DNA of 64,000 bases, from contig CAVTRN010000002.1 of the NCBI GenBank assembly GCA_963737155.1, positions 864,001 to 928,000 of the forward strand, given 5' to 3'. The position numbers and the translations under genes are program-made. The DNA comes from Nitrospirota bacterium (GTDB taxonomy: Bacteria > Nitrospirota > UBA9217). How positions within the stretch are numbered: position 1 is the first letter of the stretch; each line of letters opens with the position of its first letter. Shown piece by piece: positions 16,970 to 63,844 of the stretch. The notes under the pieces are model-generated. The model did not search any database. It worked only from the letters and a program-made list of their open reading frames with translations, and was not told the DNA's origin.

Positions 16970-17027
16970 ACCGAAACGGAGAAACTAATGGCGGCGAAAA
17001 CGACCTTCCTGACGCTTTAATTGTCAA
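16970..17027 (+). repeat. Imperfect ~58-bp direct repeat, copy 1 (copy 2 at 18514-18571)
   Basis: ACCGAAACGGAGAAACTAATGGC...CGACCTTCCTGACGCTTTAATTGTCAA versus ACCAAAACGAAAAAACCAATGGC...CGATCTTCTTGACGCTTAATTGTCAA. Confidence 0.7.
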
Positions 17028-17040
17028 GGCGGTATCAGCA

Positions 17041-17152
17041 GTTGCAACTTTCTGAAACCGTGCACTCACTACCTAAACCGAATTTTGTGGTTGATTTTGT
17101 CTACAGCTCTCCCTGTTCGATCATCTCGACTATGGTTGATATTTCGATTCCT
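17041..17152 (-). mobile_element. ISL3-type transposase 3' end relic plus downstream end sequence
   Basis: Minus strand reads GIEISTIVEMIEQGEL*; about 95 bp aligns with the reverse complement of 63321-63415; ISL3 assignment from recalled family termini. Confidence 0.6.
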
Positions 17153-17178
17153 TAGGCTAAAATCCATTGCGAAAAATG

Positions 17179-17207
17179 TTGATAAACATGATTCATTGTG
17201 CTATAGT
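17179..17207 (+). promoter_or_regulatory. Putative TA operon promoter
   Basis: TTGATA-17 bp-TATAGT with extended -10 TG upstream of the toxin gene. Confidence 0.5.
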
Positions 17208-17228
17208 TTATAGTGTTATAGGGGTGAT

Positions 17229-17588
17229 GTGCGGGTATTCAAGACAAAGTGGTTCATGCGCTACGCGCGGCAGGAACGGATTAAGGATCATAACTTATGT
17301 GACGCCATCAAGCGTGCGGAACGTGGGCTTGTGGATGCTGATTTAGGCGGCGGAATCATCAAACAGCGAGTAGCGAGAACAGGAAAAGGCCGCTCGGGCG
17401 GTTTCCGGTTGATCATTGCCTACCGCGTCGGCAATCTGGCTGTGTTCCTTTACGGTTTCGCGAAAAGCGAACAGGAAAACATCGATGCAGATGAACTGAA
17501 AACGCTGCGAGAGATCGGGGCGGAATGGCTTGCGGCTAAAAAGAGCACCTTAAAAATGCAATTAAGGAAGGAATTCTACGGGAGGTAA
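17229..17588 (+). CDS. Type II TA toxin, RelE/ParE (DUF1044-like); C-terminus probably frameshifted
   Basis: MRVFKTKWF, DADLGGGIIKQRVAR.GKGRSGGFR, FLYGFAK motifs. Confidence 0.85.
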   Translation: MRVFKTKWFMRYARQERIKDHNLCDAIKRAERGLVDADLGGGIIKQRVARTGKGRSGGFRLIIAYRVGNLAVFLYGFAKSEQENIDADELKTLREIGAEWLAAKKSTLKMQLRKEFYGR

Positions 17589-17591
17589 CCT

Positions 17592-17930
17592 GTGAGGACA
17601 AAAAAAGTGAAACATAGTCGGCTAACGCAAGCGCTACTTGAAACGGCCAATGACATGAAAAAAGTCGGCATTCTAAGCGAGACAGCATACGAAAAAATCA
17701 CCATGCGTCACCACGGTATCGAGAACAATTCCAGGATTGAACCTTTAACCGGTGAAGAAATACGCTTGATGCGCAAACAAGCGCATATGAGCCAGGCGGT
17801 ATTTGCCCACTATCTTAACGTAACGGCTGGTTATGTGTCGCAATTGGAGCGTGGCGCAAAGCGTCCAACAGGCGCGGCACTCGTGCTGCTGAATGTAATT
17901 CACCGCAAAGGGATTGAGGCTATTCTCTAA
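17592..17930 (+). CDS. XRE/HTH antitoxin (HigA-like)
   Basis: MSQAVFAHYLNVT..YVSQLERGAKRPTGAALVLLNVI..KGIEAIL; directly after toxin. Confidence 0.88.
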   Translation: MRTKKVKHSRLTQALLETANDMKKVGILSETAYEKITMRHHGIENNSRIEPLTGEEIRLMRKQAHMSQAVFAHYLNVTAGYVSQLERGAKRPTGAALVLLNVIHRKGIEAIL

Positions 17931-17958
17931 TCTTCCCCCGCGGCCTGCCCGGCCCCAA

Positions 17959-18144
17959 CAATTCTCCTTGTTCGATCATCTCGACTATGGTTGATATCTC
18001 GGCTCCGTAGCGGCGCACCTCTTCCTCAGGTTCATACGTCGTTTCCGTATTTCGGAGGGTTGCTTGTCTTGGCGGTTATTAGGAGTGTTGGCTGGTATGG
18101 TTGACGTTTACGGCTTCAATGTCGGGCAGATTAAGGATGCTCAT
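17959..18144 (-). pseudogene. Internally deleted ISL3-type transposase relic
   Basis: Minus strand: MSILNLPDIEAVNV.. N-terminus joined within 190 bp to ..EEVRRYGAEISTIVEMIEQGEL C-terminus; 17964-18008 is a direct repeat of 17109-17153. Confidence 0.55.
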
Positions 18145-18513
18145 AGGTTTTCACGTATCGGACTAAGCCGCGGGGATATTTTCTCCTTTGACCATTTTTT
18201 CAAGACCTGCAACCAGGTCCTTCAGGATATCTTCCTTAACCTGCGCATATTCTCGATGTCTTCCTGGACCTGCGCAACTTTACTTTTGATGGTATTGATC
18301 TTTTCCAGGATTTCGTAATTGGGCATCTTGTTCAAATTGACGCTGGCAATAATAAATTATTTACAATTGAAAAAACACGGAATACGAAAGTAATCCAAAA
18401 AATATCTTGAGGGAGTAGTAAAATGACCCAGTTTATAGTAACATTTCTGGATACGTTTAAAAAGGTGGCGGTCTTTTCTTCAAACAAGAGCCTTTTAAAC
18501 GGCCTGATAAGTG

Positions 18514-18571
18514 ACCAAAACGAAAAAACCAATGGCTGATAAAGACGATCTTCTTGACGCTTAATTGTCAA
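18514..18571 (+). repeat. Imperfect ~58-bp direct repeat, copy 2
   Basis: Matches 16970-17027. Confidence 0.7.
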
Positions 18572-19021
18572 TGAAGTATTGGTTAGTCGGTATATGACAG
18601 ATGCAAGGGCATCGTTGATACTTTTTAATATTAGACTTGAGTCAACGATGTCTCACCCTCTGCCAATTAGCACGAAGATAAATCTTTCCGGATGTTATTT
18701 CAACCCAGAGTTCTGTGCCAAGAGTTATATGTTTGAGCCGTTTGCATTGCCTCCAATTATCTCTTGTCTTTGCTGGCAGTTTATACCCGACTCCTGCACT
18801 TGATTGAAAACTTGCAGGCTTTTGCCCGCTCTTTATCGGTATTTTTCGTGTATCAAATTGCGCGCACGAAGGTATTTTCAAGTTAGGTGAAAAAATAATC
18901 AATGAATCAAAGCCTTTATTGATAAAGGATGAAAGCGTTTATATCACGAAAAGAGTGCAAGATTCAGATTATAACACAACGAAATTCGCGTCTTTGGCAG
19001 TGAAGAGAAATCAATAGTCTT

Positions 19022-60612: not shown

Positions 60613-60824
60613 ATGATCTTATATTTTTATAACATTCATACAGCTCTATCTCTGCCGGGCGTGGTCGTATTGTTGTCCCTGGCTGCTGACGCAATATTCG
60701 GCTCCGGAATAGGGGCCATCTATGTTAATAACGGCGCCACGGTCGGCGCATCACTGGCTTTCCGGGCCGGCTATCTGTTTCGTGACGGGACTCAGTAGTT
60801 GTTCGGCTCTCAAATGGAAAAGAT
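60613..60824 (+). pseudogene. TVP38/TMEM64 (VTT/DedA superfamily) gene, 5' part
   Basis: TALSLPG..LSLAA.AIFG...G.IYVN.GATVGASLAF..YLFRD; internal stop; continues in frame at 63447 once the insertion is removed. Confidence 0.8.
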
Positions 60825-60953
60825 GGGTATGCGGATTCAGTAGTTGATTACCTGAAAACCCCGGTCCCAGTAAACTGATATGGTTGACAGTTGTCAATAG
60901 GGAAAATAGTCTCCTGCCCCTTTTTTTCAAAGGGTTCATTGTTTCAATATGTT

Positions 60954-61143
60954 CCAAGGCGTAAGGAGGGACGGGGCCGACTTGTGCGACGTTTGATCAC
61001 TCTGATATTCGCGGGTTTGACCGCAAGACCTTTCTTCGCCGCGGAGCTGCCTCGCTCTATTAACGGAAGTTCGGCATTGCCTTATTCCATAGTTTGGACG
61101 AGGATTCTCCGTAAACGTGGCCGCGTCCCCGCTTATGCCTTGG
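60954..61143 (-). ncRNA. Predicted IS110 bridge/seek RNA
   Basis: Outer stem plus two internal-loop hairpins; loop segments AAACTAT, AATAG, GTCT, ATATCAGA match the reconstructed target and donor around the CT core. Confidence 0.7.
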
Positions 61144-61404
61144 AGGTTGTTTATTGTTTGCTTGCGTCCTCCTTTGTTTTGCCTCAGTCGTTTGAGTCGC
61201 CATTGTTACCGGGTGACTTCAAGTTTTTGATCCTGTTCTTTGGAAAGCTCGATGCTCCCGCCTATGTTGACGATTTGAGCGGTTTTTACCTTTGAGGGTT
61301 GATTTTTTCTTTCATAAATGCCCCAGGATTGATTTTCCAGAGACAGTCCATGCCAAGATACCCCCCCAAGTTTTGTGTGACGCCTTGTTCTTGGGTTAAT
61401 CTTC

Positions 61405-62517
61405 TTATGCGCTCTGGAGATTCACTTCCCGGGCAATTGCCCATATGAAGCCGCATAGTTCCCTGGCAATGGCGGTTACCACCTTGTTCCTGGGCTTCCC
61501 TTTGGCCGTGAGTTTACGGAACCGTCCGCAGAGACGCACCTGGGCTTTCCAGGAGATATCACAGATATTTTTCGGCAGCCCCTCCTGCCGCTTGAGGATT
61601 ACCCGGCTCACTCGGGCCGGCAGACTGTAGGCTTGGGCCGCTTCAATCAATGCGCGCCTGACGTGGGTGTTTCCGGTTTTGGTGATAGCACCCCGTCTGG
61701 TGCTGTCGCCGCTGGAGTATTCGGAAGGGACCAATCCAAGGTATCCCATGAGCTGCTTGGGATTTTCAAAACGTCCCAAGTCTCCGATCTCGGCCATGGT
61801 GGTCGCGGCAGTTACATCCGCGATGCCGCGTAACGATTGGATTGCGAGTGCAACAGGGGCCGTTCGGCATGTGGGCATAAGCGTTTGAATCTGCTCCGTA
61901 AGCCGGGCCACACGCTCTGCGCATTCCTTCACCGTGTTGATGTACTCTTGCAGCGTGATCTGCTGTGCAGGGTGTGGCATCTTGATATCAGACAACCAGC
62001 GCATGTGGGCTTGGGTCCATGCGGTTTCTCCAGAGTAACGGTGTCCATGCCGCAGGAGCATCGCGCCTAACCTCTGCCGGGCAGTGCGATGGGCCTTGAC
62101 TGCGTCTTCGCGGCATCGGGTCAGGTCTCTCATGGCTTCATCATCCTCTTGGGGCACGTAAACAGGAGTCAGTTCTCCGGCCCGATACAGCCTGGCTAGA
62201 CTTTGCGCGTCACGACGATCGGTCTTGACGCGATCGCCGCTTTTCTTGGGAATCAGCGATGGTGCCACAACCGTGCATTTGTAACCTCTCTTGGTTAGAT
62301 GGCGGTATATTTCGTAACCACACGGCCCGGCTTCATAGACGAAGTGCAGTTCTGAGCCTTTGCTTTCAAGCTTTCTGACCATTTTGTCCAATGACGCCAT
62401 GTCGCCGCCGATTTTGCCGTAGTAGCGAACCTCTTGGCTGCCGCCAATTTCGGCCGTTGCTACAGCTATGGAGTTTTTTGCTGAATCGAGTCCTACGATT
62501 GTGATAGAATCTTTCAT
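61405..62517 (-). CDS. IS110-family DEDD recombinase/transposase
   Basis: VGLD, YEAGPCG, KTDRRDA, GLVPSEYSSG, TKTGN..RRALIEAA, AIARE; ATG at 62517 with AGGAGG RBS. Confidence 0.95.
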   Translation of the reverse strand: MKDSITIVGLDSAKNSIAVATAEIGGSQEVRYYGKIGGDMASLDKMVRKLESKGSELHFVYEAGPCGYEIYRHLTKRGYKCTVVAPSLIPKKSGDRVKTDRRDAQSLARLYRAGELTPVYVPQEDDEAMRDLTRCREDAVKAHRTARQRLGAMLLRHGHRYSGETAWTQAHMRWLSDIKMPHPAQQITLQEYINTVKECAERVARLTEQIQTLMPTCRTAPVALAIQSLRGIADVTAATTMAEIGDLGRFENPKQLMGYLGLVPSEYSSGDSTRRGAITKTGNTHVRRALIEAAQAYSLPARVSRVILKRQEGLPKNICDISWKAQVRLCGRFRKLTAKGKPRNKVVTAIARELCGFIWAIAREVNLQSA

Positions 62518-62632
62518 GACCTGCCTCCTTGTTTGTGGCTCTGTATTTGGACACCCATTGCATCCAAGTATAACCCACGGTGACAAGGGGCAGGTCACTT
62601 TTTCAACTGTCAACCATTATGTCTATTGATTC

Positions 62633-62661
62633 TTGACAATTATTAACACATATGTTAATAT
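62633..62661 (+). promoter_or_regulatory. TA promoter with palindromic operator
   Basis: TTGACA-17 bp-TAATAT; palindrome TATTAACA-cata-TGTTAATA (62641-60); ATG only 6 nt after the -10, so possibly leaderless. Confidence 0.65.
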
Positions 62662-62667
62662 CCAACC

Positions 62668-62994
62668 ATGAGTTGGACGGTTACGTACTATAACGAGCAA
62701 GTTAGGAAAGCCGTTTATTCCGTGCCACGCGGTATTCTTGCTCGATACTTGCGCTATGTAGAATTGATGGAGAAACATGGTGTCGATTTAAGAGCTCCCC
62801 ATTCAGAACCCATGGGAGAAGGATTATTTGAATTGAGACCTAAATCACGGGAAGGCATTGGCCGGGTACTTTACTGTACTTTAGCAGGGAGCACAGTTGT
62901 AATACTTCATTCAATTGTAAAGAAGACTCAAAAGACACCACAAAAAGATATAGATATAGCGCGACAGCGTATGCGGGAGGTCAAAAATGGATAA
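62668..62994 (+). CDS. Type II TA toxin, RelE/HigB (Gp49-like)
   Basis: PHSEPMGEGLFELR...EGIGRV.YC, VILH..VKKTQKTP..DI..AR.RM. Confidence 0.9.
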   Translation: MSWTVTYYNEQVRKAVYSVPRGILARYLRYVELMEKHGVDLRAPHSEPMGEGLFELRPKSREGIGRVLYCTLAGSTVVILHSIVKKTQKTPQKDIDIARQRMREVKNG

Positions 62995-63301
62995 ACGTAA
63001 TAAATATAAACCAGTAAAGCATACAAAGGAAGACACGGCCAAACTGCTTGCTTCTGATCCGAAATTAAAAGCCGCCTATGATGCGCTTGAGGATGAATTC
63101 GGCGCACTTGATGCGCTTTTAACAGCGCGTCGTAAAGCGGGGCTTAGTCAAGCAGAGGTTGCCCGGCGCATGGGAATGAAATCGTCATCGCTGGCGCGTA
63201 TTGAAACATCACTTGGAAATCGTAAACATTCACCGTCGTTAGAAACATTACGCAGATATGCCGAAGCTTGCGGTAAAAAACTCATAATAAAGATTGCTTG
63301 A
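62987..63301 (+). CDS. XRE/HTH antitoxin (HigA-like)
   Basis: AAYDALEDEF, ARRKAGLSQAEVARRMG, PSLETLRRYAEACG; overlaps the toxin stop. Confidence 0.9.
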   Translation: MDKRNKYKPVKHTKEDTAKLLASDPKLKAAYDALEDEFGALDALLTARRKAGLSQAEVARRMGMKSSSLARIETSLGNRKHSPSLETLRRYAEACGKKLIIKIA

Positions 63302-63438
63302 TCATTGGGGAAAAACTCCCATAATCGAGATGGTCGAGCAGGGACAACTGTAGACAAAATCAACCACTAAATCCGATTTAGTGAAGTGCATGCGCGGTGG
63401 CAGAAATTTGCAAAACCAACCAGTAAATCCGAATACCT

Positions 63439-63720
63439 AAAAAGATGGGCAGCGAACTGGAAACTAGAAGCTTCATATCTCTTTTCCCTGCTGCTCGTCC
63501 TGGTATTTCCTTTTTCCCTGATCAACTTCGTCGCAGACTACCCAAAATGCCCTTGCGGATATTCCTTCTCGGTATCGTGATTGACATTCCGGGCAGCTTC
63601 GTGTACTCCAACATGGCAGCCGGCCTTGCAACGATCACACGCACGAATGAAATTACATCTCCTCACGGGCTCGTTTTTTACCCCTGCTTGGAATCTTCAC
63701 CCTCGTCCCACGGCCTATTA
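63439..63720 (+). pseudogene. TVP38/TMEM64 gene, 3' part (frameshifted)
   Basis: MGSELETRSF / YLFSL.LV.VFPF.LINF / IPGSFVYSNM...LATI fragments spread over different frames. Confidence 0.75.
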
Positions 63721-63844
63721 GGAATCCAGGAGGAAAAGAAAAAAAATATCTTTAGTCTGTCGAAAAAAACGGATAATTGTGCTATTATATTGCGGCAAAC
63801 AAGGGGAGTTTAGTCGACTCTTCTCAGGAGCACGGAATTCCGTC

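Follow-up and report, generated by a model that had tools for sequence, protein, structure and literature searches.

We analysed a stretch of 64,000 nt (hereafter the window) from contig CAVTRN010000002.1 of a Nitrospirota bacterium, the host genome (G000), in which a TVP38/VTT-domain gene is interrupted by an element carrying a toxin-antitoxin (TA) operon between the ends of an ISL3-type insertion sequence (IS). Coordinates are positions in the window, except those prefixed with C1: or C2:, which refer to contigs of the host, and those prefixed with an L number, which refer to individual loci. The element occupies positions 60825-63438 and has itself been entered by an IS110-family element. 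The target site of the latter, AAACTAT, is known from empty copies of one target; this sets the insert at 60877-62624 and leaves a core of 866 bp. The core reads, in order: left end, promoter/operator, Gp49 toxin, helix-turn-helix (HTH) antitoxin, ten transposase codons, inner end motif and right repeat (Table 1).

Table 1. Features of the element and its insertion site, followed by those of the relic at 17-18 kb.
Feature	Position	Strand	Evidence or remark
TVP38/VTT-domain pseudogene, 5' part, in-frame TAG at 60796-60798	60628-60824	+	PF09335 weak; alignment to intact paralog
Target duplication, left copy (GAAAAGAT)	60817-60824		7/8 match to 63439-63446
Left terminal inverted repeat (IRL), ISPpu12-like	60825-60848	+	20/24 versus both ISPpu12 ends
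Remainder of left end, ~11 bp short, holds left half of IS110 target	60849-60876	+	Left-end profile; AAACTAT target
IS110-family element, later insertion, not part of the cassette	60877-62624	-	NF033542, 273 bits; empty target known
IS110 sub-terminal inverted repeats, 14 bp	60880-60893 and 62604-62617		Within 60877-62624
IS110 transposase frame	61405-62613	-	NF033542, 273 bits
Predicted sigma-70 promoter, TTGACA-17-TAATAT	62633-62661	+	10/12 consensus; scan by itself near chance level
Palindromic operator within promoter	62643-62658	+	Promoter, palindrome and their spacing recur in three related TA loci
Gp49/DUF891 toxin gene (HigB/Tad-type, RelE fold), 108 amino acids, open	62668-62994	+	PF05973, E 1.7e-25
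XRE/HTH_3 antitoxin gene, 104 amino acids, open, overlaps toxin stop	62987-63301	+	PF01381, E 4.3e-11
Last ten codons and stop of ISL3 transposase	63321-63353	+	Alignment to 438-amino-acid transposase at C2:1760401
Inner end-motif copy, 56 bp inward of the right end; also present in full-length elements	63359-63382	-	Right-end profile
Right terminal inverted repeat (IRR), outermost G replaced by A	63415-63438	-	18/24 versus IRL; 20/24 versus ISPpu12 IRR
Target duplication, right copy (AAAAAGAT)	63439-63446		Pairs with 60817-60824
TVP38 pseudogene, 3' part, more small indels	63447-63749	+	Alignment to intact paralog
Relic as a whole: inner right end without terminal repeat, tail copies, TA pair and transposase start	17040-18148	-	No target duplication
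Relic: transposase-tail copies, 48 bp each, 90% alike	17108-17155 and 17963-18010	-	Flank RelE/HTH pair
Relic: RelE/HTH pair	17229-17930	+	Between the two transposase-tail copies
Relic: transposase start, fused almost directly to tail	18064-18148	-	After second tail copy

The initial annotation, made from the sequence alone, had described imperfect inverted repeats of ~24 bp starting with GG. The repeats are indeed 24 bp long and imperfect, with 18 of 24 positions identical, but the IRR begins with AGG and not with GGG. For the comparison with ISPpu12 we took the ends from the annotated pWW0 record, against which the IRR scores 20/24 and 18/24. The IRL is also identical at 19 of 24 positions to the end of a full-length element of the host at C2:1758497. 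The end type, GGGTA..CGGATT....GGTTGAT in imperfect 24-bp repeats, is the one found in the ISPpu12 subgroup of ISL3. The right-end profile, built like the left-end profile from relatives, covers positions 2-96 of the right end of the element (E 8.8e-12). The left-end profile matches positions 1-50 of the left end only, and the inner GGTTGAT half-site seen in the left ends of sister units is degenerate in the window copy. The two copies of the duplication, GAAAAGAT and AAAAAGAT, agree at seven of eight positions, and given the local composition the chance of at least 7/8 at a fixed place is ~4e-4. The A+T-rich 8-bp duplication, the ISL3 identity of the ends and the length of about 0.87 kb without IS110 were thus all borne out. 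Judged by its repeats and its duplication, we assign the 866-bp element to the derivatives of the ISPpu12 subgroup.

The codons before the right repeat had been taken for the last ten of a transposase, and the alignment agrees: the tail IIEMVEQGQL-stop aligns with VLEMIEQGEL, the C-terminus of the ISL3 transposase at C2:1760401. With the transposase reduced to these ten codons beside two open TA genes, as initially proposed for an element whose sole cargo is a TA operon, we class it as a derivative and not as an autonomous IS. Having both IS ends round passenger genes and no transposase, it would be a mobile insertion cassette (MIC). We also considered a MITE (a miniature transposable element with inverted repeats), which is short (under ~0.5 kb), non-coding and multicopy; this is ruled out by the 866 bp, the two genes and the single copy. 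A TA transposon of the Tn3 family was rejected as well, as the repeats have 24 and not 38 bp, the duplication has 8 and not 5 bp and there are no genes for a TnpA of ~1000 amino acids or a resolvase.

Removal of the element together with one copy of the duplication had been expected to restore the TVP38 frame. The junction obtained in this way is gap-free against five TVP38 homologs (FGSQMEKMGSELETR versus FGPRLEKINTELETR), but other lesions make the gene a pseudogene: the TAG and several small indels remain, and ~58 N-terminal codons are not alignable. An intact paralog lies at C2:744 kb. In a search of 41 genomes no orthologous empty site was found; five relatives gave matches of 68-83% only, the longer ones at 68-70%, and these homologs of 68-70% identity served for colinearity only.

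The operon shows a PF05973 toxin gene followed by an HTH antitoxin gene and an operator palindrome, from which we predict a type II TA system of the Gp49-HTH (tad-ata/HigBA) kind. The toxin also matches the HigB of PDB entry 6af3 (E 6.9e-9). The promoter ends 6 nt ahead of the toxin start, a distance that predicts a leaderless mRNA for the toxin, and a gap of 5-6 nt is kept in four Gp49-HTH loci (window 62633-62670, L034, L035 and L041). The nearest relative of the pair is L034 (85% at the DNA level), where the pair is followed by eight codons from the start of an ISL3 transposase gene; we read this arrangement, TA followed by the transposase start, as the parent layout. The ratio of non-synonymous to synonymous substitution rates (dN/dS) is 0.19 for the toxin versus L034 and 0.03-0.04 for the antitoxin versus L034 and L041. 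The L034 toxin has a premature stop, and in both L034 and L041 the toxin is broken but the antitoxin intact. Addiction and phage defence are equally good readings of the predicted function, and the initial label of addictive elements is not supported as it stands.

Scanning the host with the end profile gave five other paired units. Two of them, 164 and 304 bp long, hold no genes, and another, at C2:104308-105390 with an 8/8 duplication, is the second unit that lacks a transposase, its cargo being an AbrB-PIN pair; units of MITE size that share these ends lie at C1:11103 and C2:969801. The full-length elements comprise one with a Phd-RelE pair at C1:68685-70861 (L002:4686-6862; transposase NF033550, 280 bits) and one with a Gp49-HTH_37 pair and a MucR-domain gene at C2:1758497-1761801. 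A third ISL3 element of 2.13 kb with related ends occurs at C1:135348, C1:1564844 and C2:1627825 (duplications 7-8/8). Each copy holds a HepT-like toxin with an upstream partner gene, labelled a nucleotidyltransferase by eye, and this is the sole multicopy TA-bearing ISL3 in the host. Duplications of 8/8 are seen at full-length elements too. In all five full-length elements of the subgroup a TA pair lies beside the transposase, in both orientations, a count that leaves out six distant transposase matches (22-24%). The transposases are 41-42% identical to that of ISPpu12; open ISL3 frames of 438 and 433 amino acids are present, with end identities of 16-20/24. Searches with PIN_3 and six Pfam toxin families gave 29 toxin loci in the host; 7 of them lie within these ends, whose share of the genome is 0.33%. 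The idea of decayed ends at most of the host TA loci found no support, as the profiles found ends only at the known elements, at the relic at 17-18 kb and at a neighbouring ParE locus. We further noted that the element at C1:68685-70861 has two nested repeats at its TA end and is inserted at the 3' end of another Phd-ParE pair with a truncated toxin match.

The window unit had been proposed to belong to a family of inverted-repeat-bounded units with differing TA pairs, and such a family exists. With one mismatch allowed, 9 of 64 genomes of the taxonomic family contain the end pattern, and the reversed-pattern control was empty; stretches were fetched round 20, 18 and 5 places, and the weak two-mismatch matches were taken in part. 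Within the genus we found 14 transposase-free units with paired ends, 0.79-1.25 kb long, in five genomes (two in G000, eight in G001, one in G003, two in G010, of which one was completed from the identical locus L147 and counted once, and one in G011). Five more paired units below 0.6 kb, none with a whole gene, stand outside this count. All 14 units carry a TA-type pair, in eight family combinations: Gp49-HTH (1), AbrB-PIN (2), Phd-PIN (2, one PIN weak), Phd-PIN_3 (2), DUF6364-PIN_3 (2), DUF6922-AbiEii (2), MazE-MazF (2) and DUF433 with a broken partner (1). Duplications of 7-8/8 bound 10 of the 14, with six sister units at 8/8, and in each of the 13 relative units tested an end of the left type is paired with one of the right type. 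All 13 gene pairs that could be measured gave a dN/dS of 0.03-0.34, with one further pair saturated; the TA genes are under purifying selection. Three pairs of sister units are collinear from end to end with unlike flanks: L021/L030 (90% over the whole length, 1249 and 1245 bp, duplications 8/8 and 7/8), L018/L027 (82%) and L022/L147 (87%). Collinearity at unrelated sites points to movement after the loss of the transposase.

Taken together, we consider it likely, with a probability of roughly 0.75, that the window unit was made by deletion of the transposase from a TA-carrying parent with ISPpu12-like ISL3 ends and was placed by a transposase acting in trans. The parent would have been ordered left end, TA, transposase, right end. 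Internal deletion of the transposase, several times independently, would have kept both asymmetric ends, the right one with its inner site and the adjoining transposase tail. A helper ISL3 transposase of the DDE type would then bind both ends, make a staggered cut of 8 bp in A+T-rich DNA and insert the unit there, and movement in trans is likely for such units in general. The operon would be driven by its own promoter, with the antitoxin repressing it at the palindrome, and freed toxin would cleave mRNA at the ribosome. Loss of the unit would thereby become costly, or the host would gain phage defence, and TA-bearing derivatives would outlast other derivatives as well as the helper. The five full-length host elements indicate that the pair was a passenger and that the transposase was deleted, not replaced. 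The initial view that TA pairs take the place of the transposase is therefore not borne out in that form; full-length elements already hold both, and at L034 the pair runs into a transposase start.

Several observations weigh against this reading. In the window copy the left end is shortened, one terminal base is changed and an insert of 1.75 kb is present; since its ends are worn and IS110 sits inside it, it is probably no longer mobile. No second copy of the window unit was found in the host genome, and four DNA sequencing runs gave no copy at another site; they yielded mostly IS110 sequence, one short contig over the right junction at the known site and no junction that bypassed the element. 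No unit was seen twice in any genome, the two of G000 and the eight of G001 all being different. As to candidate helpers, the nearest host transposase has Tyr for the fourth zinc-finger Cys, the close transposases of G001 are all broken, and G010 and G011 have distant ones only. Four of the 14 units have a duplication of only 3-6/8, in three (L018, L030, L293) the toxin or its partner is broken, and among the three collinear pairs only L021/L030 shows 7-8/8 on both members. L016/L178 and L017/L004 share their cargo at unrelated sites with differing junctions, which fits separate deletions. In the family search no end motif was found near any of the 19 other toxin loci fetched.

The distribution outside the genus counts on the same side. 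In another genus TA genes were present in neither of two units, whose cargo was a zinc-ribbon gene and a cupin; among the metagenome matches listed, with 79 of 126 stretches analysed, three of seven distinct transposase-free units carried them, and on viral contigs (13 loci) none of four units did. Full-length elements in these sets hold non-TA passengers. Outside the genus most mini-units thus carry other cargo and TA pairs are a minority. Across 401 genomes of the phylum we found scattered weak matches to the end pattern, and in 201 genomes of another phylum none. Among 80 loci from a scan of genome contigs for an intact parent or second copy, the end motif lay at one locus, L034, where it is not paired round the TA genes, and among plasmids the right end had no match. 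The metagenome and viral stretches also showed that seven loci with the same ends (L127, L164, L180, L182, L192, L280, L292) have in common a small passenger protein that closes with a conserved, GKKVNTYLDAES-like motif; the two scanned have no match in Pfam, and variable short genes lie beside the protein's gene. An 818-bp stretch at L118:602-1419 (also L129, L141 and L181), on a contig of 62% G+C, has both ends and a HigB-like/HigA pair but no target duplication, and is a possible TA unit outside the genus.

Much of this would also be expected if the units were fossils in place, that is, if complete TA-carrying ISL3 elements had inserted themselves and later lost the transposase, the immobile remains being kept as TA genes resist deletion. 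The single copies, the differing junctions, the broken or distant helpers and the worn window copy within a decayed gene all suit this explanation, as do transposase tails of differing lengths. However, L021/L030 and L018/L027 share a transposase-free structure at unrelated sites, for which identical independent deletions would be required, and random decay would hardly remove nearly all of the transposase cleanly 14 times and leave both ends in place. We therefore regard fossils in place as unlikely. A transposase joining its ends directly round chromosomal TA operons, a true replacement with no TA-carrying full-length stage, is more improbable still. It would account for the TA orientation relative to the ends, which is opposite in 5 of 14 units, for the several units without a tail, for the relic with its TA pair between two tail copies (the tail contains an end-like motif) and for the fact that an intact full-length parent was found for none of the 14 cargos. 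Against it stand the five full-length host elements, L034 and the tails kept in the window unit, L004, L016, L017, L033 and L147. Finally, ISL3 ends and TA genes might both gather in A+T-rich islands so that their pairing is meaningless, and several units do lie in TA-rich regions (e.g. L016, L259 and C1:68-71 kb). We give this almost no credence, as in 10 of 14 units TA genes take up the space between two ends that face the right way and are flanked by a duplication, 7 of 29 host toxin loci fall into 0.33% of the genome and the reversed-pattern controls are empty.

A wider reading goes beyond the transposase deletion and placement in trans favoured here: in this genus the ISPpu12-like ends may serve as a dedicated TA delivery system, with sub-kilobase addiction or defence cassettes moving in trans as a non-redundant panel, outlasting their helper and supplying a sizeable share of the chromosomal TA loci. 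For this we see the balance as even.

Transposase-free units with IS ends are known as MICs and MITEs (PMC4133298, PMC5444012, PMC7157771), among them an ISL3-derived MITE of 187 nt in Microcystis (PMC11448079). A helper transposase in trans has been inferred both for MICs and for the Microcystis ISL3 MITE (PMC4133298, PMC11448079). Our units resemble them in having IS ends and a duplication round a passenger, no transposase and inferred movement in trans, but differ in their ISPpu12-like ISL3 ends, in the TA operon present in 14 of 14 gene-sized genus units (eight combinations) and in occurring as single copies instead of at high copy number. ISPpu12 has 24-bp repeats and 8-bp duplications (PMC3735179) and ISPst2 has similar ends (PMC6305408). 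Like our units these elements have imperfect 24-bp repeats (20/24) and 8-bp duplications, with passengers between the left end and the transposase; unlike them they keep the transposase, and the passengers described in these reports are lspA, cation transporter, cadR-like or ArsR and permease genes, not TA genes (PMC3735179, PMC6305408). Lima-Mendez et al. (2020) described Tn3-family transposons with TA passengers, and ISL3 is unmentioned in the main text (PMC7157771). There too TA pairs were acquired several times independently, belong to the same toxin families (Gp49, PIN, PIN_3, ParE, HEPN) and lie beside the transposition genes, and they are proposed to stabilise the element (PMC7157771). 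In contrast, our units belong to another transposase family, have no resolvase or res site and hold TA genes as sole cargo after transposase loss.

Mobile units with TA genes only are known from the TA dif modules of Acinetobacter plasmids (PMC10132070). These and the superintegron TA cassettes are likewise minimal enzyme-free mobile units of a TA operon and its promoter (PMC10132070, PMC7167474, PMC11980606), but their mobility depends on site-specific recombination at dif or att sites, whereas ours have DDE-transposon ends, random A+T-rich targets and 8-bp duplications. With the described tad-ata/HigBA systems the window operon shares, as far as the sequence tells, the toxin-first order, the PF05973 toxin, the XRE antitoxin and the palindromic operator (PMC4133298, PMC11980606). 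Toxins of PF05973 are described as ribosome-dependent mRNases encoded in toxin-first order (PMC11980606), and TA addiction, phage defence and the decay of chromosomal TA pairs have been described as well (PMC7167474; for general background see PMC13216065, PMC9330008). In the literature searched we found no ISL3 element or ISL3 cassette with a TA pair, though an entry in ISfinder, TnCentral or a supplement is still possible.

MICs and TA passengers on Tn3 are thus already known, and the TA-only ISL3 cassettes extend the link between TA genes and transposons to an insertion-sequence family. The origin of dozens of unrelated chromosomal TA pairs is puzzling, since a TA operon itself brings along no genes for mobility. 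Two ISL3 ends with a TA operon between them offer a concrete small vehicle, which would spread TA genes round chromosomes if moved by a borrowed transposase. The genus units show the end state, with the TA pair as only content, and about a quarter of the host toxin loci found lie inside such ends. A single unit per TA type and genome is the outcome expected under selection for non-redundant addiction or phage defence.

The unit at 17-18 kb of the window had been grouped with the element in one family. It is no intact member but a relic, with neither terminal repeat nor duplication. Its duplicated transposase tail may record how cargo was gained or swapped. Stretches with an imperfect palindrome (TTGAC..GTCAA) lie on either side of the relic, at 16986-17030 and ~18530-18572; blastn left them unjoined.

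The IS110 element that entered the left end has six copies in the host genome, 99.7-99.9% identical and at unrelated sites. A DEDD transposase, a fixed short target and no long duplication place it in the IS110 family, and by its sub-terminal repeats it may belong to the IS1111 subgroup. That it aims at ISL3 ends was ruled out, as the six sites share AAACTAT only. One copy lies inside another repeated element (~12 copies), and ~0.5 kb of non-coding DNA follows the transposase downstream.

Further end motifs were noted. The AbrB-PIN unit at L004:2309-3391 has two nested repeats at one end, and its duplication fits the outer one. Unpaired end motifs lie by further TA-like pairs at L025, L031, L259, L262/L296, L267, L273 and L276; L296 holds VapB-PIN with a transposase tail and L259 a DUF2442 pair, and the others were recognised by eye. 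At L295:525-8460 (G003) an end motif, three genes resembling type I restriction-modification genes by eye and an intact ISL3 transposase lie in a row, a possible defence-carrying ISL3.

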